DNA of 37,027 nucleotides from a virus. Its lineage: Duplodnaviria > Heunggongvirae > Uroviricota > Caudoviricetes. This document shows, one piece after another, positions 15,343 through 23,520 of this stretch. The stretch lies in the IMG/VR virus record IMGVR_UViG_2909303794_000007; one strand, given 5' to 3'. The notes under the pieces are model-generated. The model was not told the origin of the DNA. It did no database searches and saw only the letters and a list, made by a program, of their open reading frames with translations. Position numbers and translations under genes: made by a program. Every line of letters starts with the position of its first letter. The stretch's first letter is position 1.

Positions 15343-17193
15343 TTATGCTGCCGGTGCATTTATCTCCAGCACCAGACTTTCTATCTCAACGCCATACGCT
15401 GCATTTTTTGTAACATCCGTCAGCGTCAGCGCATTCAGTCCCAGTGTCAGACTGTCTTTTATAACCTGGAATGCCGGGCCAGCCACTCCATTCAGTTTCG
15501 GAGTAACCGTGGCACTGCCGGCGGTGAACACCAGCTCCAGCGTCTGCCAGTCGTTACCGTAATCGCCGAACTCCCCCAGCTTCGTGTTTCCGGCTTTCCT
15601 GTGATGCATCAGATTCACTCTGCCGTCAGTGGTCTGAGTGAAGTACGACATCAGGAACGGATTACCGGTACCCGTCATCGCCACACCATCAGGAACGGGA
15701 GCATCCGTATACAGATAAATCCCCAGCCCGAACTGATTGTTGGTCAGTGCGCCTGACAGGCGGAACTTACAGGTCAGTCTGCCGCCCTGTGTCAGCAGGG
15801 TAATTGCGTCATCCACCGGATGCGTCAGGGACCAGGTTTTATTGCTCTGCTTGGTGATCTTAAATACACCATCTGACAACTGAATTCCGCCATCCTTAAT
15901 GCTCCAGCCCTGCGCAGCAGCCTCTCCGGCTGCCGGCAGCAGGGAGATTGTGCGAACCGACGTATCTGCAGACGGACCCGATGGCGTGTTGCCGCCGGGC
16001 GAGGGTTTGATTTCCGGTGCCTTACCACTGATGAAGGCTGAGGTGCGCCCGGCTGCGTTCAGAATAGCGGTTGCCAGACGATCCGGAATAATGCTCCTGC
16101 GCGCCCATGAACTGAAATGTGTCGGGCGGTTTGATGATACCTGGTTTCCATTCGTTCTCGATGCCGCACCGTAATATCCTGATGCCGGAATATCCGGATC
16201 TTCTGCCGGCGCGTTAGTGGCGGTATTGACGCCGTTACCGTCTGTCATGAAGGGCACAAAATAAACGCCCTCACTCTCCCTGTTTTTATACCCGCCGTAC
16301 ACGGTGTCGTACTGGGTAGCGTATGTATTTTTCCAGTAATACGTCGTGTCACCACAAATCCACGGCACATCTGCAGCACTGCCACCATGGCACTGCGCGT
16401 TAAACACGGAGAGGTCAGCACGAAACTGTGTCAGCATGGCTGTAAACAGCGCAGGTTGCTGTGCGTGGGTGGCGGCGCTCATGTCAAACTCTCCCTGCAT
16501 CCAGCACACCGCCAGCAACACATTTTTCGGGTTCTTCTGTAATGCAGCTTTAGTGCGCGCAATCAGGTCCTGATATAACGGTTTACCCACACCCCAGCGT
16601 GCCGAATCCTGGCTGGCCCCCGTGTCCGCACTGAATGTCCCCTCAGCGCCCTGGGTGAATGCAGAACCACCACGACAGCATGGTACCAGCAGGATCCCCG
16701 CGTTATTCGGGATATACGGAAGCAGTTTTTTGGCAATATGTAAGCCCTGGCCGACACAGCCGTACTGCCCTTTGCTCAGGTCTGCCTTCGGATGATTCAG
16801 CGTACTCATATCCTGCACATCATGCAGGCAGTGGTCGGCCGGAATAATATCGTTATATCTGCAGGCAGCCCCACCCGGCGTAACTGTACTGCGGCGCGCC
16901 AGCTGTTTAATGCGCGGATCCGGAGCATCGTATGAATCCGGAAGCGGAAGCCCTTCCCCGTAAGCCATTGCATTGGACTGCCCGGCCAGTACGATGACGT
17001 AGTACCAATCCGGCTCAGTTGCACCACTGACCACCACATCACCTTCTGCTGCAATCGCCTGCATCAGGGTATAAGGGGTTATGGCCACCGGACTACCAAA
17101 CGGCTGCCAGCCCTCTTTCAGTTTGTGTGTCAGCTTTTCCGCAAGGTCTGACGGCGACGCCGCCCTGACAACATCATAATGTTTAATCGACAT
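15343..17193 (-). CDS. nanS-p: Prophage sialate O-acetylesterase (NanS-p-like; DUF1737 N-domain plus SASA/NanS esterase domain plus C-terminal extension)
   Basis: 616 aa; YYVIVLAGQSNAMAYGEGLPLPD...CCRGGSAF...CWMQGEFD... matches E. coli NanS (YjhS) as I recall it. Sits where Stx phages carry this gene, downstream of the toxin locus. Confidence 0.8.
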   Translation of the reverse strand: MSIKHYDVVRAASPSDLAEKLTHKLKEGWQPFGSPVAITPYTLMQAIAAEGDVVVSGATEPDWYYVIVLAGQSNAMAYGEGLPLPDSYDAPDPRIKQLARRSTVTPGGAACRYNDIIPADHCLHDVQDMSTLNHPKADLSKGQYGCVGQGLHIAKKLLPYIPNNAGILLVPCCRGGSAFTQGAEGTFSADTGASQDSARWGVGKPLYQDLIARTKAALQKNPKNVLLAVCWMQGEFDMSAATHAQQPALFTAMLTQFRADLSVFNAQCHGGSAADVPWICGDTTYYWKNTYATQYDTVYGGYKNRESEGVYFVPFMTDGNGVNTATNAPAEDPDIPASGYYGAASRTNGNQVSSNRPTHFSSWARRSIIPDRLATAILNAAGRTSAFISGKAPEIKPSPGGNTPSGPSADTSVRTISLLPAAGEAAAQGWSIKDGGIQLSDGVFKITKQSNKTWSLTHPVDDAITLLTQGGRLTCKFRLSGALTNNQFGLGIYLYTDAPVPDGVAMTGTGNPFLMSYFTQTTDGRVNLMHHRKAGNTKLGEFGDYGNDWQTLELVFTAGSATVTPKLNGVAGPAFQVIKDSLTLGLNALTLTDVTKNAAYGVEIESLVLEINAPAA

Positions 17194-17507
17194 CGAATTT
17201 CTCCCGTGTACAGGAACAGAGTTAAAAAGCCGGAACCGGAATCAAATCACAGGATGACCATCTGCCAGTGGCTGGTCGTAAAAAAAAGGCCGCGCCATGC
17301 GCAGCCGGAAATAAAGGGATAACGATGATAGTTTGAGAAAAACAGAAATAACACTTTTGTGGCAAAGCATGGTGCCGGGTGCCTCCCGGTGAATTCAGTA
17401 CCAGCACCTGAATCCGCGATTATCCCATATACCTACTCGCTGATTGCCCCTCCGCACAGGGGGATTCACCATGCAGAAGTGTTTTTAATAAACAGCAAAC
17501 AAAAAAA

Positions 17508-17675
17508 TCAAGCATTATGCAGGCTGTTTCTTTTTATCACCGGCCACAGCAATACCACAATGCCGCAGACCAGCACCCCATCCGCCAGCACCGACATGAT
17601 TCTGCTGGTGAAATCCACCATCACCACCAGAAACAGCAGGAGTGCAGCCACAGTCAGGCGCAGTTTTACCGTCAC
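17508..17675 (-). CDS. Possible small membrane peptide (GTG start overlapping the TerB-like stop)
   Basis: VTVKLRLTVAALLLFLVVMVDFTSRIMSVLADGVLVCGIVVLLWPVIKRNSLHNA; GTGA start/stop overlap with the upstream gene; hydrophobic. Confidence 0.25.
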   Translation of the reverse strand: MTVKLRLTVAALLLFLVVMVDFTSRIMSVLADGVLVCGIVVLLWPVIKRNSLHNA

Positions 17676-18104
17676 AGGTGATTCTCCAGACGAAGACCCA
17701 GAACACCGGCAATCTCTTCCAGCACCTTGCGCTCTTCCGGCTCAATTTCGCCGTCTGCCTCCGCAATGGCCACCGCCACATCCAGCACATCTTCCGCTTC
17801 ACGCGTATCGTGTTTCACATCCTCGATCTCACGTAACGCCGCACGACGACCAATTTTAAAGTTCGTATCCAGCTGACCGATAATGGTTGCGCTAATCGCA
17901 TTAATTTCTGACGTAAACGCGGACAGCGCAGGCTGATTACGCAGTACCTGTTCGATCTTCGCTTTCTAGGAAGCCTCACATTCACCATCTGCACAGGCCA
18001 CCAGGTATGCGGCGTTAATCACCACCTGTGCCAGATCGCGTTTTTCAAACTTTTTAATTTCCGTTGCCGCTCTGCGGGCTTTTTTTACCAAAAATACCAA
18101 ACAT
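17672..18104 (-). pseudogene. TerB-like (tellurite-resistance-family) gene disrupted by a homopolymer frameshift and an in-frame amber codon
   Basis: MFGIFGKK is followed by a frame change at a T7/A7 run (18080-18086), then ...KKFEKRDLAQVVINAAYLVACADGECEAS, a TAG (minus-strand codon at 17966-17968), then KAKIEQVLRNQPALSAF...DVLDVAVAIAEADGEIEPEERKVLEEIAGVLGLRLENHL. Confidence 0.6.
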
Positions 18105-18273
18105 CGTGACGTTCCTTTGGGTGGGTGAGCCAACGCCCGGGAGCGATCTGCCCACAGAGAAAGTCACACTGACCACTCCGTAAGCTCACCCCCGAAAGGC
18201 TCTGTGGTTGATATGCACCGGGCGTGGCGCAGATACAAAAAAGGCCCGCCGAAGCGAGCCTGGAAAATAAGTG

Positions 18274-18350
18274 TGGCGCGTTGTAGTGGAGTCGAACCAC
18301 TGACCGATTGCTTAGAAGGCAATTGCTCTGTCCGGCTGAGCTAACAACGC
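18274..18350 (-). tRNA. tRNA-Arg (anticodon UCU), phage argN/argO-like
   Basis: Reverse complement GCGTTGTTAGCTCAG...ATTGC-CTTCTAA-GCAAT...GGTTCGACTCC...ACAACGC-G-CCA: cloverleaf with anticodon loop CU-UCU-AA, T-arm GGTTCGACTCC and a 3' CCA. Confidence 0.85.
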
Positions 18351-18387
18351 AGAATACCGATAATGGACCGCCATCGGGGACCCGCCC

Positions 18388-19725
18388 CATAAGCGCTAAC
18401 TTAAGGGTTGAACCATCTGAAGAATGCGACGCCTCGGTGCCTCGTTAAGACGATGCCTCGCGTTCTTCAATTGCGTTTTGTAGGCTGTCAGGGATACTGT
18501 CCCACGAATGGCCACCTGTAAGCTCCAGATGACCATTTTTGTTATTCTCCACAACGAGTTAGTTCTTCTTTTCGGATCCGGCACTTCTGGGGGGGAAATC
18601 CAGCGATGGCTGGATTATGTCGTCAATTAAAAATGCGGCGAGTAGATTAGCAAATATCCACGCTTTCGCGAGTTCAGGTTCCTTTGCACGCAAAGCATCC
18701 AGGTGCAGCAAACTTTTGAGCCGCTTAAAAGCCAGTTCAATTTGCCATCGCAGACGGTAACAATCAGCCACTTGCTCTGCTGAATATTCATCTTCCGGTA
18801 ATGATGTTAGCAATAGCACATGGCCCGCTGCTTCCAGCGTTTCCGCCTGAACTACTCGTCCTTTTCGACGATTCTCGCTGAGCAGTCGGGTTTTACTGAT
18901 TAATGCTTTTTCGGGAGGAAGTGATACGGCAATGAGACGTGCCGGAAAGGGAGCTCCGGCTTTTTTATTACCTGAATTGCCTATCATTACAGTGGTTTCA
19001 CCGTTCTTACCGCAATCCAGCCCGCGCAGAAAACCCATCATGTCAAAGCGCATTCCTTCTGCAGTTAACCAGCGCAATCCTCGCCAGTGAACCCGGACGA
19101 TATAATCAGCTTCTCCAAAAGCAAGTGAGCGGATACATTCGGGACGCGAACCGAATCCCCGGTCAGCAATGCGTATCTCGTCTGCCGTTTGCGCAAATCG
19201 GTCCAGCCGTTCAGCGTCTCTGCTGTCGGTTAGCTCAAAATCAGTGAACTGACAGGTATGAGGATCATATCCCATATGTAGTCGCCATTCAGCGCTGCCG
19301 CCCCCGGGCGCACTGATTGCTGTTCCATCGACAAGACGCAATCTCTTTCCGCTTGTACAACCCGTAACTGCGGCGCGTACAGCAAGTGTTTGTGCGGCAA
19401 GTATGCCAAACCAGTCGGCGGCATTCCGCAGCCGCTTCAGGAGAGCCACGTCAGATAATGTTGCAACGTCATGGAGCTGAGCCCATGCAGTGACTTCACG
19501 TAATGACATCCCCCGGGGCCGTAAGCCAGCCCCAGACGTAGCAGAGTTGCAGCATCACGAATTTCGCGGCGGCGGGTTAGAGCCCCGGCATTACGTGCCG
19601 AAGTATCCAGTTCTTCGGGCTTACCAATATGGGCCAGAATTGCTGACCAGTTATCGTGAGAGTAATTCATCGGCACGTTAAATCATATCAGGCGTAATAC
19701 CACAACCCTTAAGTTAGCGCTTATG
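18388..19725 (-). mobile_element. IS186 (1338 bp) inserted into a GC-rich hairpin between the two phage tRNA genes
   Basis: Terminal inverted repeats cataagcgctaacttaagggttg (18388-18410) and caacccttaagttagcgcttatg (19703-19725), flanked by a direct repeat GGACCCGCCCC (~11 bp) at 18377-18387 and 19726-19736. Confidence 0.9.
18559..19676 (-). pseudogene. IS186 transposase (IS4 family) with a 1-bp frameshift near 19510-19514
   Basis: N-terminal ORF MNYSHDNWSAILAHIGKPEELDTSARNAG...GLAYGPGG and C-terminal ORF MSLREVTAWAQLHDV... are in different frames; one extra base in the G/C run would join them. Confidence 0.75.
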
Positions 19726-19798
19726 GGACCCGCCCCCGCACCAACAACCCTGTTATGGTGTCGTCTGCTCTTCCTGATAAGCTAATGGCGGTATGTGA

Positions 19799-19874
19799 TG
19801 GTGGCCCTTGCTGGATTTGAACCAGCGACCTGGCGATTATGAGTCGCTCGCTCTCACCACTGAGCTAAAGGGCC
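19799..19874 (-). tRNA. ileZ: tRNA with anticodon CAU, Ile2-like (phage ileZ-like)
   Basis: Reverse complement GGCCCTTTAGCTCAGTGGTGAGAGCGAGCGACTCATAATCGCCAGGTCGCTGGTTCAAATCCAGCAAGGGCCACCA closely resembles E. coli tRNA-Ile2 (ileX/ileY). Confidence 0.85.
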
Positions 19875-19923
19875 GGGACCAGAATAATAATGGTGCGAAA
19901 TTAATTCTGCAATCTCATCCGTT

Positions 19924-20973
19924 TCAAACGATTAAATCCTGAACTTCCCTGACTGTCTGCTCAAAACGTTCAGTCTCCAGCTCAACGCCAATTGCACGAC
20001 GCCCGAGCGCCAGTGCCGCTTTTACCGTTGAACCTGAGCCCATAAAAAAATCTGCAACCAGGTCACCCGGACGACTGCTTGCGCTGATTATCTGCTGCAG
20101 CATTTCTGCCGGTTTTTCGCACGGATGTTTCCCGGGATAGAACTGCACCGGTTTATGTGTCCACACATCCGTGTACGGCACCTGCGCCGTCACACCAAAA
20201 TACCGCCGCAGATGCTTATATTCACTCTGCAGCTCCGCATACTGTCGGTTCAGAGAGGCATACGTATCCACCAGCTGGTGGTGGGGCTTTTCCAGTTCAC
20301 CCCGCTGATGCTTCTCTTCTGCCACCCGGGCAAACAGTGCCTGTAATTTCAGATAATCGCTTTCGTTCGGCAGCTGCCACTGACCGGCACTGAACCAGTG
20401 CGACACCATGTTTTTCTTTCCTGTGGCATCTGCAATCTGTTTTGCCGTTATCCCCAGGACAGCGCGCGCATCACGAAAGTAAGCAATCAGCGGGGCCATC
20501 ACATGCTGTTTCAGTGCCCTACCCTTCGCCTCATACCCGGCATCTTTCGGACGATACGGCCCCTGATAATGCTCTGCGAACAGAATGCGCTCTGTGGCGG
20601 GGAAATACGCCCGCAGGCTTTCCTTGTTGCACCCGTTCCAGCGTCCGGACGGCTTTGCCCAGATGATATGGTTCAGCACGTTAAACCGCTCACGCATCAT
20701 GATTTCGGTGTCAGATGCCAGACGATGGCCACAGAACAGGTAAAGACTTCCGGCAGGTTTCAGCACCCGCCAGAACTGCGCAAGACACTGGTCCAGCCAC
20801 TTCAGGTAATCTTCATCACCCGCCCACTGGTTATCCCAGCCCTCGGGTTTCACTTTGAAGTACGGCGGGTCCGTGACTATCAGGTCAACAGAATTTTCGG
20901 GTAACGACCGCATAAATTCCAGGCAGTCGGCGTTGATTAACTCACAACTGGATATTTTTACAGTATTAAGCAT
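19924..20973 (-). CDS. DNA methyltransferase (amino-methyltransferase, beta-class motif order: DPPY near the N-terminus, SAM-binding FxGxG near the C-terminus); no cognate endonuclease seen
   Basis: 349 aa; LIVTDPPYF (motif IV) and DLVADFFMGSGST (motif I). Confidence 0.8.
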   Translation of the reverse strand: MLNTVKISSCELINADCLEFMRSLPENSVDLIVTDPPYFKVKPEGWDNQWAGDEDYLKWLDQCLAQFWRVLKPAGSLYLFCGHRLASDTEIMMRERFNVLNHIIWAKPSGRWNGCNKESLRAYFPATERILFAEHYQGPYRPKDAGYEAKGRALKQHVMAPLIAYFRDARAVLGITAKQIADATGKKNMVSHWFSAGQWQLPNESDYLKLQALFARVAEEKHQRGELEKPHHQLVDTYASLNRQYAELQSEYKHLRRYFGVTAQVPYTDVWTHKPVQFYPGKHPCEKPAEMLQQIISASSRPGDLVADFFMGSGSTVKAALALGRRAIGVELETERFEQTVREVQDLIV

Positions 20974-21123
20974 GGATCATTAAGCCTGTCTCTGATAGGC
21001 TCATTCTGCTTTTGCGCAAAGCAGTGGGCCTGAGGTTTGCTTGTGAACCCAACGCATGAGCAGATGGCTGGTGGGTGCCCCTTACACCCACCAGCCGCCC
21101 ATTTACCACAAATAAAAAAGCCT

Positions 21124-21321
21124 TCAGGACTGAAGGCGTCTGTAACAACCAAACTGATAGTCTGCCAGACCCGCCATAACCAGCTGGGTCAGTATTAACT
21201 GGCAGCGTTCGCGTGAAAGGTAAGTATTCTGCGCAATCTCCCCGACTGTCGCCGGGTCGGTAACGCTTAATTCATTAAACACCACTCTGGCGGTTTCTGT
21301 CATATCCTGCTGTTTCAGCAT
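21124..21321 (-). CDS. Small hypothetical protein with a possible winged-helix motif (~65 aa, start MLKQQDM...)
   Basis: AAGGGA Shine-Dalgarno 8 nt upstream of the ATG at 21321; the 106-aa track ORF is probably over-extended. Confidence 0.35.
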   Translation of the reverse strand: MLKQQDMTETARVVFNELSVTDPATVGEIAQNTYLSRERCQLILTQLVMAGLADYQFGCYRRLQS

Positions 21322-21447
21322 GTCTTTTTCCCTTTTCCGGTTAACGTGACACACCAATAACTCTTGTCGAAAAAGCCAGCAACCTGAAAGAACGGTATTA
21401 ATAACCACCAGCGAATTTATTGCGCTGCTGTATATTACGGACACAAA

Positions 21448-21476
21448 AAAACCACCTTCCGGTGGCTTCCTTGTGC
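21448..21476 (-). terminator. tR'-like rho-independent terminator downstream of the Q-position gene
   Basis: Minus strand: gaagCCACCggaaGGTGGttttttt, a short GC stem plus U7, ~90 bp downstream of the 180-aa gene. Confidence 0.45.
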
Positions 21477-21562
21477 GAAAAAACTTGCATTTCGCCTCGC
21501 GATACAGCTTTGCGAAGCTTACAGGAATTCAAGCTGTTTCTGCGTAAAAAAGCAAGCTTTTT

Positions 21563-22105
21563 TTATCGAAATGAATCGTGCATAGGTACATAAAGCATGT
21601 GTTCAGCCACGGCTAACCAACCTGCAATACGTTTCTCACATGTGCTGAAACACCATTCCGGGTGAGTACGATTTAAACATTCTGCCATTTTTCTCTTACT
21701 CATTCCCCGTCCTTCGTACCTTTGCCGGAGAATATTGATTAGCCCGGGATATTCCCCAAGCACCTCACTGATAACGCGATCAATAATCAACGCCTCTGTG
21801 TCTGTACAATGTGACAACCAGCTCTTCTGCTTCCCTCTGGTCATATCCCGAAAAAATGCCTCAAGTTCCGGTTTTTCCAGCCCGGATTTCTTCATGCTGC
21901 GTAAAACCTCATTAACTGCTGTTTTCGTCAGCTTTTTCGAAACCAGTAACCGGTTAAACATATTTCCGGATTTACCCCCACCGATATACGACCACCGCCC
22001 CCACATCCGTAATTTCCCCTGGATCCAGACTGCTTCCAGCGTGTTCAGGCGTAAATGTTCGCCGCTTTTGCCTGTAATTTCCGGATATATCATATTTACG
22101 CTCAC
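21563..22105 (-). CDS. Protein occupying the late-antiterminator (Q) position; family not assigned (not lambda-Q-like; possibly DUF1133 or a Q21/Q82-type antiterminator)
   Basis: 180 aa; start overlaps the rusA stop; immediately upstream of the tR'-like terminator and the late genes. No similarity to lambda Q that I can see. Confidence 0.35.
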   Translation of the reverse strand: MSVNMIYPEITGKSGEHLRLNTLEAVWIQGKLRMWGRWSYIGGGKSGNMFNRLLVSKKLTKTAVNEVLRSMKKSGLEKPELEAFFRDMTRGKQKSWLSHCTDTEALIIDRVISEVLGEYPGLINILRQRYEGRGMSKRKMAECLNRTHPEWCFSTCEKRIAGWLAVAEHMLYVPMHDSFR

Positions 22106-22461
22106 TCACTCTCAATTTTGTAAATCTTCACACCCAGCCGTCCACCAGATACTGGCTGACCACGTACAATATTGATTTCATCAAACTGCTCATCGTCCAT
22201 TAGCACCCCCGCATGCGTCAGCGCATCCAGCGGCGCTTTCAGAATATTGTCCAGGTCACGGCGGCGCTTATCCGGTGGCTCGGCAATAATCTTTATCGCC
22301 AGCCTTCCGGACAGGTTTAATTTCAGCCGCTGCTGGCGAACAATAAGTGCCACATCCCGGCGATAACGCTCACCGGCTTTTGATACAAAATATGTGCTGC
22401 CACGACGTCGCCAGTAGGTGTTCACCGTCGGCGGGTAAGGCAAAACAAACTCTATACGCAT
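22102..22461 (-). CDS. rusA: RusA-family Holliday junction resolvase
   Basis: 119 aa; ...PPDKRRRDLDNILKAPLDALTHAGVLMDDEQ... matches the RusA catalytic region (DRRRRDLDN...DAL). Confidence 0.85.
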   Translation of the reverse strand: MRIEFVLPYPPTVNTYWRRRGSTYFVSKAGERYRRDVALIVRQQRLKLNLSGRLAIKIIAEPPDKRRRDLDNILKAPLDALTHAGVLMDDEQFDEINIVRGQPVSGGRLGVKIYKIESE

Positions 22462-22473
22462 CAGTAACCTCTT

Positions 22474-23520
22474 TTACCCGAGCACGCCGGTTGCAAAGGC
22501 GTGATCAAGAAAACGAAAAATTAAATCAACCTGGGAACCATGCTTTTCTTCGAACGCCAGCGGATCCGCATGAAGCTCGTTGTGATGCTCCCGACACAGC
22601 GGTAGCGTGAAAATATCGTGGGATTTTGTTCCCATTCCGCCCTGACCATGACCAATCAGATGATGAGGATCGTCCGCTGGCTTACCACAACACGCACACG
22701 GCTGTGTCTTTACCCAGCGTGTGTATTTCTCATTTACCCAGCGGCGACGTTTAGGTCGTTTCATGAAGGATTCCGGAGACTCCGGATCAACGGCAATGCT
22801 TACCACCGTCTTTTCCTGTGGCGGGTTTTGCTGGTGGGCGTGAGGCAGCGGCGCAAGATTTTTTGTGCGCTGTTTCAGGATGCTGGTGGCTGTCTGTTCT
22901 CCCGGTATGATGTCGCTTTCGCGGTACACCGAGCGGATTTTTTCCGCACGTAACCCCAGAGAACGACGTAATGCTGCCTCTGGTAGCGCATCCGCCACCT
23001 GATTGCAGACCGCCCACCAGGATAATTCACCCAGAGATAATTCCCGCTCCTGCGTGCCATTCATTGCATGGCGTATGACGTCAATCATCCATGCTGACAA
23101 ATTTTGGTGAGCAAGTTGCCCGAGTGATTCGGAGGTCTGGTCACGCAACTGGTTGTCGCAGTGCCAGCACAACACCATTGCGCCGGTACCATAACGGTGA
23201 ATGACAGTTTCGCTGTGGTGATAATCGCCGTGTGGCCACTGGCAGGATTTAATATGGCGCAACAGCCAGTCAGACAATGCACCAGCACCACCAGCAGCAC
23301 GAATCACTCGTTCGTCGCTGAAAAATGGCAGCAATGTTTTGTCTTCCACCAGCGGATGGCGAACGGCAGGAACGACCCCGGACGGCAGATTACGCATGCT
23401 TTTCGGTTCCGGCTCCACCAGTACCCGGGTATTGTGAAATACCTGCATGGATTCACGACCTGGCTTAAGGGCCACCAGCCCGAGTTCCGGTACCAGAACA
23501 GGTCGAAGTAATACCCGCAC
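22474..23520 (-). CDS. DUF968 (YdfU-like) prophage protein with HNH-like C-terminus
   Basis: 348 aa; C-terminal CACCGKPADDPHHLIGHGQGGMGTKSHDIFTLPLCREHHNELH; sits upstream of rusA/Q as ydfU does in Qin. Confidence 0.7.
   Translation of the reverse strand: MRVLLRPVLVPELGLVALKPGRESMQVFHNTRVLVEPEPKSMRNLPSGVVPAVRHPLVEDKTLLPFFSDERVIRAAGGAGALSDWLLRHIKSCQWPHGDYHHSETVIHRYGTGAMVLCWHCDNQLRDQTSESLGQLAHQNLSAWMIDVIRHAMNGTQERELSLGELSWWAVCNQVADALPEAALRRSLGLRAEKIRSVYRESDIIPGEQTATSILKQRTKNLAPLPHAHQQNPPQEKTVVSIAVDPESPESFMKRPKRRRWVNEKYTRWVKTQPCACCGKPADDPHHLIGHGQGGMGTKSHDIFTLPLCREHHNELHADPLAFEEKHGSQVDLIFRFLDHAFATGVLG

Follow-up and report, generated by a model that had tools for sequence, protein, structure and literature searches.

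A conserved structured leader in front of an M.EcoGII-type adenine methyltransferase gene located behind the Q-like gene of a lambdoid prophage

Prophages of Escherichia coli O104:H4 C227-11 encode M.EcoGI and M.EcoGII, two enzymes that have 333 of 349 residues in common and that methylate adenine in any sequence context (PMC5778455). M.EcoGII, a protein of 349 amino acids (aa), also acts on single-stranded DNA and on RNA (PMC5778455), its activity on DNA being higher than on RNA (PMC11551740). The two proteins are not expressed in the lysogen and slow down growth when they are expressed constitutively (PMC5778455), and homologues from O111 Shiga toxin-producing E. coli, identical at about 93%, were classed as non-specific and gave no signal in the methylomes of lysogens (PMC6602927). 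M.EcoGI and M.EcoGII were proposed to overcome host restriction during infection (PMC5778455; PMC12707154); in 2024 the exact biological role of M.EcoGII was still called unknown (PMC11551740). A gene of this family is present in the virus record IMGVR_UViG_2909303794_000007 of IMG/VR (37,027 nucleotides (nt), hereafter the window, whose numbering gives all the coordinates below), where it is preceded by a structured leader that represents the main subject of this work. All the genes at issue lie on the minus strand.

Like M.EcoGI and M.EcoGII, the enzyme of the window contains 349 residues with motifs in the beta-class order and is found in a prophage context without endonuclease. It is identical to them at about 93%, differs from M.EcoGII by about 24 substitutions, and is accompanied by a small gene, two terminators and a structured leader, none of which is described in PMC5778455. 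The orphan adenine methyltransferases P1 Dmt, T4 Dam and Stx-phage Dam/M.EcoVT2 are also thought to counter restriction or to aid packaging; however, they are specific for GATC, whereas the M.EcoGII family has no sequence specificity. The com-mom genes of phage Mu display a comparable organization: a toxic DNA-adenine modification gene, silent in the lysogen and expressed late, is preceded by a small open reading frame (ORF), has its translation start sequestered in an RNA structure, and is controlled at the level of translation by the small protein Com. Mom does not belong to this methyltransferase family, however, and Com is a Cys4 zinc-finger protein that binds the mRNA beside the hairpin hiding the start codon and whose gene overlaps mom, whereas the small protein of the window is winged-helix-like, has two conserved cysteines and is encoded 150 nt upstream of the methyltransferase gene; moreover, the leader is retained in many loci that lack the small gene. 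This resemblance is an analogy and not a homology.

The M.EcoPA8orf6770P-PNB-2 pair of Stx phages (Gong et al. 2023, PMC10810198) also associates a phage methyltransferase with a small winged helix-turn-helix (HTH) gene located just upstream, with a Rho-independent terminator between the neighbouring upstream genes, and PNB-2 changes the substrate choice of its methyltransferase (PMC10810198). Unlike the enzyme of the window, M.EcoPA8orf6770P belongs to the MT-A70 family (DPPW) and its gene has another position in the phage genome; the likeness is drawn from the published description. Finally, the type II restriction-modification (R-M) systems controlled by C proteins also have a small putative DNA-binding gene upstream of the modification gene. 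They differ from the present locus, where no endonuclease is found, the small protein is winged-helix-like and not of the Xre HTH type, the genes belong to the late operon of a phage and the enzyme comes from a non-specific family.

The methyltransferase gene (19924-20973, minus strand) is recognized by the Pfam model PF01555 (N6_N4_Mtase; residues 29-340, E=3.6e-44, 151.8 bits for a cut-off of 26.7) and by the PADLOC model MTase_II (E=2.5e-162). The catalytic motif TDPPYF corresponds to the residues 34-39 (DPPY codons at 20860-20871) and the motif FFMGSGST, involved in the binding of S-adenosylmethionine, to the residues 309-316 (FxGxG codons at 20032-20046). The motif order is that of the beta class, with DPPY at the N-terminus, a central target-recognition region and FxGxG at the C-terminus, and the relatives found in the PDB align in two blocks that flank a central insert of about 165 aa. 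A full-length alignment with the M.EcoGII sequence given in the supplement of PMC11551740 reveals 325 shared residues out of 349 (about 93%); this reference is a machine-read copy in which some differences look like reading errors, and the true identity may be slightly higher. None of the substitutions falls within DPPY or FxGxG. The identity is 94.8% with the enzyme of phage 1720a-02, which was named by Murray et al. as a very similar relative of M.EcoGII (PMC5778455). By sequence similarity the enzyme is therefore placed in the characterized M.EcoGI/M.EcoGII family, and as such is already known; it probably transfers a methyl group from S-adenosylmethionine to the N6 of adenine in essentially any context. 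The anti-restriction reading is the same as that published for these close relatives, and is not new.

A preliminary description, made from the letters of the window alone, had reported an orphan amino-methyltransferase with DPPY and FxGxG motifs behind a tR'-like terminator, together with an ORF of about 65 aa and phage tRNAs. All these features are present on the minus strand; DPPY and FxGxG, where inactivating changes were looked for, are intact in the translation, and no endonuclease gene was found. The description had, however, placed the methyltransferase gene directly after tR', where in fact the small ORF, a second terminator-like hairpin and a leader of about 145 nt intervene. This structured leader, the element most tightly linked to the methyltransferase, had been overlooked.

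The leader, or 5' untranslated region (UTR), extends from 21116 to 20974 (minus strand). Over 36 loci, the mean pairwise identity of this spacer is 84%, while in the methyltransferase gene it is 82% at the first, 87% at the second and 48% at the third codon position: the leader is conserved as strongly as the amino-acid-determining (non-synonymous) codon positions. Long invariant runs are observed in the spacer of 22 loci, even though the small proteins of these loci are identical at 53-86% and the methyltransferases at about 75%. The leader is not coding: the lengths of its insertions and deletions are not divisible by three, and each frame is open in 27 of 77 sequences at most. Both a leader peptide (MGGWWV...) and a hidden ORF were considered and rejected, the mini-ORF that begins at the conserved AUGGGC varying from 3 to 42 codons. 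On the gene strand, Rfam 15 gave no match to the leader at E<=1 (17000-23000 searched); the only overlapping match is a chance-level hit of P26 on the opposite strand, with 24.3 bits for a gathering score of 36. The prophage anti-sRNAs (anti-small RNAs) AgvB and AsxR of Tree et al. were also rejected as candidates, as they lie elsewhere and do not match the leader, and a preprint on the 'Pas' sRNA does not mention the locus. Having no Rfam family and no mention in the papers cited here, the leader is apparently undescribed.

A covariance model (R1) was built from 51 sequences with four helices, P1 to P4. The metagenome scan gave close relatives only; diverse methyltransferases, and with them the varied leaders, were obtained from a viral scan seeded with the divergent enzyme of locus L139. 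In the window, R1 has a single match (20971-21116, 126 bits, E=4.6e-30). It also finds one match before the methyltransferase in each of 83 loci, with the reservation that locus L020 has no methyltransferase gene and that the weak match of L293 lies 140 nt upstream of the start, and, in 79 of 80 metagenome loci, one match that runs up to the ATG. Nothing significant was detected by R1 in the loci that contain the small gene only (best score in L086, 21 bits, E=0.015), and no match was found in a sister clade of methyltransferases with a shorter leader (L253-L255, L258, L262, L264, L269, L271, L274-L276). In this sister clade, the homologue of the small gene has a different C-terminus (...GLMESRD.DTFFKRCP) and the leader, of about 85 nt, keeps a P2-like hairpin.

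The leader of the window folds at -60.9 kcal/mol, against -45.1 kcal/mol for shuffled sequences (z=-4.1). Covariation was measured in a model-based alignment of 77 distinct sequences, with reference to a first fold (fold A) in which P1 (21097-21101/21025-21029), P2 (21066-21096) and P3 (21036-21064) form a three-way junction followed by P4 (21008-21022) and P5 (20981-21003), all on the minus strand. Changes on both sides are observed for 11 of the 12 pairs of P2 and for seven of the eight pairs of P3, where one pair occurs as C-G in 34 sequences, A-U in 13, U-A in 13 and U-G in seven, and another as U-A in 39 and C-G in 28. P4 contains one two-sided pair (U-A 57, G-C 19), and P1 has a compensatory double change of its own in locus L025. 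The covariation measures of the whole structure are above those of all 500 shuffles and of all slid controls. No Shine-Dalgarno sequence is present in the leaders of E. coli type.

A second global fold (fold B) is composed of a B1/P2 hairpin and a long B3/B4/P4 hairpin. Its helices, B1 (21097-21102/21056-21061), B3 (21039-21048/20975-20985) and B4 (21024-21030/20998-21004), on the minus strand, are absent from the model R1, so that the alignment is not biased toward them. B3 pairs GGUCACAAGC with GCUUACUGAUC, the second strand of which ends 1 nt before the AUG, and includes three two-sided pairs (for example G-C 42, A-U 17, G-U 7). Three two-sided pairs are also found in B4, which pairs GGCCCAC with GUGAGCC. 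B1 pairs AUGGGC with GCUCAU and is paired at 97%, with one-sided changes only (G-U/G-C/A-U). The wobble pairs favour the mRNA strand, G-U outnumbering A-C by 82 to 11 in B1 and by 90 to 12 in B3. The two folds are mutually incompatible, B1 and B3 with P3, and B1 and B4 with P1, and their energies lie within 2-4 kcal/mol of each other (-54.5 and -58.6 kcal/mol in the window, -50.4 and -52.4 kcal/mol in locus L015). A GATC (Dam) site is located at 20977-20980 (minus strand), 3 nt upstream of the methyltransferase ATG (CTGATC[CT]ATG), and is kept in 131 of 145 leaders. In divergent clades the partner strand of helix B3 contains another GATC, which may be no more than a consequence of the pairing.

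These features make the leader a candidate cis-regulatory RNA that would limit the translation of a toxic enzyme, and the most economical reading is that of a bistable 5' UTR which would keep this translation low or conditional. We propose more tentatively, as a possibility somewhat short of even, that the leader is an undescribed bistable cis-regulatory RNA whose fold switching gates the translation of the toxic, non-specific DNA/RNA adenine methyltransferase in the late phase. Candidate triggers for such a switch are the winged-helix-like neighbour (following a com-mom-like logic), ribosomes ending the upstream ORF in the hairpin t2, or a metabolite (S-adenosylmethionine or S-adenosylhomocysteine).

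Two hairpins separate the leader from the Q-like gene (21563-22105, minus strand). The first, t1 (21441-21476, minus strand), is a strong, tR'-like intrinsic terminator located about 88 nt past the stop codon of the Q-like gene and composed of CACAAGGAAGCCACC-GGAA-GGUGGUUUUUUUGUG followed by seven U (-23.9 kcal/mol, z=-6.4). In comparisons with Stx phages whose Q genes are different, the homology ends at about 21419; t1 is therefore part of the Q module. The second, t2 (21110-21137, minus strand), was detected by a terminator scan as the hairpin GCCUUC-AGUCCU-GAAGGC followed by six U (-10.8 kcal/mol) and encloses the stop codon of the small gene. Five of its six pairs show changes on both sides among 39 loci, its U-run is weaker in other genera, and the stop codon of the small gene is located in or next to its loop in all the lineages inspected. 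This position of the stop codon suggests that a ribosome finishing the small ORF would melt t2, so that translation of the small ORF would favour read-through into the leader and termination at t2 may depend on it. A consensus scan of 19700-21800 detected no sigma-70-like promoter and did not reveal the late promoter PR'. A promoter in the TGTGAAAAT box, on the leader's 5' edge, was considered and rejected: the length of its A-run varies between clades (by eye) and the scan gave no promoter-like site there.

The close identity to characterized enzymes, the intact motifs, the place behind Q and two terminators, the lack of an endonuclease gene and the conserved structured leader are observed here. 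They are best explained by a methyltransferase of M.EcoGI/M.EcoGII type that is encoded in the late operon, silent in the lysogen, active against restriction and equipped with a translational brake, an explanation that we consider probable as a whole. The gene would form part of the first cargo block in the late operon of a Rac-like lambdoid E. coli prophage. In the lysogen it would be silent, having no recognizable promoter of its own, and transcripts from the late promoter would stop at t1 or t2. After induction, a Q-modified RNA polymerase would read through both terminators, and translation of the small ORF, whose stop codon lies inside t2, may favour the read-through into the leader. The enzyme would then hypermethylate the replicating phage DNA and so make the progeny resistant to many restriction systems simultaneously. 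As this enzyme is toxic, an extra brake on translation would be expected; the leader could provide it by having no Shine-Dalgarno sequence and two competing folds, one of which would pair an 11-base stretch ending 1 nt upstream of the AUG.

Several points weigh against this explanation or against its part on the leader. PR' was not located, the consensus scan gave no promoter, and expression with the late operon is deduced from position alone. Specificity and expression are assigned to an allele that differs from M.EcoGII at about 24 positions, on the basis of an identity calculated from a machine-read supplement, and the anti-restriction role of the M.EcoGII family has never been demonstrated in vivo (PMC11551740). 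As regards the leader, its variation mostly separates a few clades, and the independent compensatory events are far fewer than the cell counts suggest; P3 contains 68 A-C mismatch cells, and fold B is supported mainly by a single divergent clade. The sister clade with the shorter, unmatched leader indicates that the leader is not indispensable.

The small gene upstream of t2 encodes a stand-alone, winged-helix-like protein of 65 aa. It extends from the ATG at 21321 to the stop at 21124 (minus strand), and a RefSeq record identical at 100% (WP_000917750.1) has the same limits. A version of 106 aa starting at a GTG is unlikely to be real, because RefSeq uses the shorter limits and the homologues of other genera contain 63-65 aa. 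We detected 333 homologous clusters, many source records of which carry the name 'TrmB family transcriptional regulator'. In Pfam, the protein of the window has sub-threshold winged-helix matches only, over the residues 7-55 (TrmB, DprA_WH, MarR_2 and HTH_24; TrmB E=0.0042, 17.4 bits for a cut-off of 25.6). Among 28 members of the family, sub-threshold matches to TrmB are found in 27 and to DprA_WH in 26, the best E being 6.8e-6. An AlphaFold model computed with 28 homologues is of low confidence (predicted local distance difference test, pLDDT, 65.6) and consists of three core helices and a short C-terminal helix; Foldseek found nothing in the PDB at E<=0.001 with this model, and PDB sequences searched with a profile yielded no significant match. 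As both searches were empty, the putative winged-helix assignment comes from the weak Pfam matches only. A profile search among 1.84 billion representative proteins recovered a narrow family of 86 representative clusters, all short and stand-alone, with no domain fusion. Only two cysteines, C40 and C59, are conserved, and PADLOC has no match for the protein.

When 23 genome loci were retrieved with the small protein as query, the small gene was upstream of the methyltransferase in 22 of them, with a constant spacer of about 150 nt, in about ten genera (the set includes Escherichia, Salmonella, Kluyvera, Citrobacter, Klebsiella, Buttiauxella, Mixta, Mangrovibacter and Scandinavium). In a viral sample of 120 loci biased toward E. 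coli, it is immediately upstream in 105 of the 109 loci that carry the methyltransferase, and it occurs without the methyltransferase or the leader in the other 11. Of the 80 loci of a divergent viral sample, 42 have it before the methyltransferase; in the remaining 38 no homologue is detectable within 1.2 kb and the leader is retained. A 77-aa ORF upstream in locus L288 was examined as a remote homologue and rejected (hhalign E=0.12). The small gene is thus a frequent but not obligatory companion of the methyltransferase.

This frequent association raises the alternative that the small protein is a functional partner of the methyltransferase, either as a Com-like activator or repressor acting on the leader RNA or as a PNB-2-like subunit that would alter the substrate preference, for example towards RNA. 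The adjacency in 105 of 109 and 22 of 23 loci, the constant spacer and the persistence of the small gene in the clade with the shorter leader all argue for such a partnership. A precedent is given by PNB-2, a winged HTH protein encoded just upstream of the MT-A70 methyltransferase of an Stx phage, which forms a 1:1 complex with the enzyme and directs it to 16S rRNA (PMC10810198), and M.EcoGII is itself able to methylate RNA in vitro (PMC5778455). However, the PNB-2 system uses a different methyltransferase family (DPPW, MT-A70), and M.EcoGII by itself already shows full activity in vitro (PMC5778455). The 38 divergent loci that keep the leader without a small-gene homologue, the 11 loci where the small gene stands without leader or methyltransferase, and the complete lack of fusions also speak against a partnership, and the presence of only two conserved cysteines implies that there is no zinc finger of Com type. 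We consider this alternative rather doubtful.

The conservation of the spacer could also reflect a function of the DNA and not of the RNA, such as a Chi recombination hotspot or mosaic 'linker' at which phage modules would be exchanged, a promoter, or an operator bound by a protein at the 12-bp inverted repeat. This perfect 12-bp repeat (21066-21097) indeed carries the Chi octamer (GCTGGTGG) on each of its strands, and Chi is strongly over-represented in the window, with 16 sites for 1.5 expected from shuffles, 12 of them on the minus strand, which is that of the late genes. In the loci with the small gene only, the homology breaks right after ATGGGCGGCUGGUGGGUGU; this breakpoint is however partly an artefact, these loci having been retrieved with that 19-mer. 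The octamer, which constitutes the 5' arm of P2 in the leaders of E. coli type, is replaced in divergent loci by GACTGTAAAGG, GGCAAAGGAG, GCGTACATGA and others, with compensatory changes that preserve the hairpin. Because the 3' arm changes to match where Chi is replaced in the 5' arm, it is the stem P2 that is conserved, and Chi was rejected as the conserved feature. Furthermore, conservation and covariation span all 145 nt, the G-U pairs are favoured on the sense strand, and no promoter-like site was found by the consensus scan. A function at the DNA level is improbable for these reasons, compared with a folded leader RNA.

Some observations on Chi and on the breakpoint can be added. Ten copies of Chi, including two overlapping palindromic pairs, are clustered between the methyltransferase and DUF968 genes (20268-23479). 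By reasoning, Chi on the minus strand would be in the orientation recognized by a RecBCD enzyme that enters at the cos end, close to the terminase genes. In eight of the loci with the small gene only (L030, L063, L082, L103, L108, L119, L127 and L141), the homology to the window ends right after ATGGGCGGCTGGTGGGTGT (21083-21101 of the window, minus strand), which contains Chi and forms the 5' arm of P2. Another variant without methyltransferase (L045, L086, L114 and L135) keeps P2 and diverges later. The break could be a mosaic recombination joint, in a sample that is biased by its retrieval with the same 19-mer.

Another alternative concerns the role of the enzyme, which could act epigenetically in the lysogen, as the preliminary description had also envisaged, or on host RNA, and so alter host or prophage expression instead of protecting the progeny DNA. 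RNA and DNA:RNA hybrids are substrates of M.EcoGII in vitro (PMC5778455), a different methyltransferase of Stx phages modulates spontaneous induction via rRNA methylation (PMC10810198), and the biological role of M.EcoGII is stated as unknown (PMC11551740). An action in the lysogen is nevertheless contradicted by the reports that lysogens show no methylation attributable to M.EcoGI/M.EcoGII homologues (PMC5778455, PMC6602927) and is at odds with the location of the gene behind two terminators in the late operon, while an action on RNA agrees poorly with the higher activity on DNA (PMC11551740). This role therefore seems very improbable to us.

The last alternative supposes that the methyltransferase is a remnant or component of an R-M system and that the small protein is its C (controller) protein. 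The preliminary description had seen no endonuclease partner, and the search for an adjacent one by RefSeq annotation, Pfam and PADLOC confirmed that there is none on either side of the methyltransferase: the upstream neighbours are the small winged-helix-like gene, Q, RusA and DUF968, the downstream neighbours are the tRNAs, IS421, a TerB pseudogene and lysis genes, and PADLOC gave zero matches for the three upstream neighbours submitted to it (small gene, Q and DUF968). The protein DUF968 contains a C-terminal HNH-like motif (CxxC...HH...H), with a weak match to the Pfam family HNHc_6 (E=1.2e-4). It was rejected as a nuclease partner, being encoded upstream of Q in another transcription unit, separated by RusA and Q and variably linked, as it is absent within 4 kb in at least eight related loci. 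The same description had seen a controller-like regulator in the small gene; this is not supported, with no R-M system to control, sub-threshold winged-helix matches only, no Xre-type HTH match and a gene that stands alone in 11 of 120 loci and is absent from 38 of 80 (a C-box was not specifically searched for). Thus, although the best PADLOC matches are 'Type II methyltransferase' models, a small putative DNA-binding gene lies upstream and an HNH-like protein is encoded 1.5 kb away, an R-M origin is hardly conceivable for an enzyme without adjacent endonuclease whose neighbouring small protein matches winged-helix profiles only and has no PADLOC match, and whose characterized relatives are non-specific and as such incompatible with a cognate sequence-specific endonuclease (PMC5778455).

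In 5' to 3' order, the minus strand contains DUF968, RusA, the Q-like gene, t1, the 65-aa ORF, t2, the spacer, the methyltransferase, tRNA(CAT), an IS421-like element and tRNA-Arg. The DUF968 gene (22474-23520, minus strand) is upstream of the RusA gene (22102-22461, minus strand), which is followed by the Q-like late antiterminator gene, the first element of the late-control module, identified by Pfam (DUF1133, E=1.1e-110; Phage_antitermQ, 35.1 bits for a cut-off of 26) and by PHROG 753 ('anti-termination protein Q-like', E=3.8e-74). The tRNA(CAT) (19799-19874, minus strand), found by ARAGORN and by the Rfam tRNA model (72.5 bits), is of the tRNA-Ile2/ileZ type, is annotated as tRNA-Ile by RefSeq and represents the downstream end of the conserved module. 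A tRNA scan detected tRNA-Arg(TCT) at 18274-18350 (minus strand). The usual tRNA cluster of the module is split between tRNA-Ile2 and tRNA-Arg by an insertion sequence of the IS4 family (IS421-like, about 18443-19680), whose transposase gene is frameshifted, with ORFs of the DDE domain on the minus strand and a RefSeq pseudogene on the opposite strand. Downstream of tRNA-Arg, beside the TerB pseudogene and a DUF3927 gene, the Rfam sRNA family STnc100 has a full-length match (17331-17503, minus strand, 101.5 bits for a gathering score of 47); a second match to this family, at 18231-18335, is weak and partial.

A stretch identical at 100% is found in E. coli 14EC017 (NZ_CP024134), where RefSeq annotates the same genes. 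This copy belongs to a lambdoid prophage located beside tRNA-Ser and mtfA, with a RacR-type repressor gene, dicB, lysis genes and terminase genes. Sequences resembling the 2-kb region are present in 3479 of 5426 complete E. coli genomes, with a query coverage of at least 80% in 1741 of them, and in 292 phage records, mostly Stx2 phages.

The enzyme family and its anti-restriction interpretation were known already. The conserved folded leader and the frequent winged-helix-like neighbour of the methyltransferase are apparently undescribed, and of the whole locus only the leader would merit experiments. M.EcoGII is sold as a reagent, serves in chromatin footprinting and has been engineered to write N6-methyladenosine into RNA, yet what it does in nature and how it is regulated are still given as unknown. 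The genes of its wild relatives are located at the beginning of the late operon, a few hundred bases past Q, and are preceded by two terminators and by a conserved leader that is probably bistable and has no Shine-Dalgarno sequence. The leader is a candidate new RNA motif, widespread in the prophages of Enterobacterales, including the Stx2 phages where the module is located just upstream of stx. This arrangement provides a testable account of how a lysogen tolerates the gene of an enzyme that methylates every adenine.

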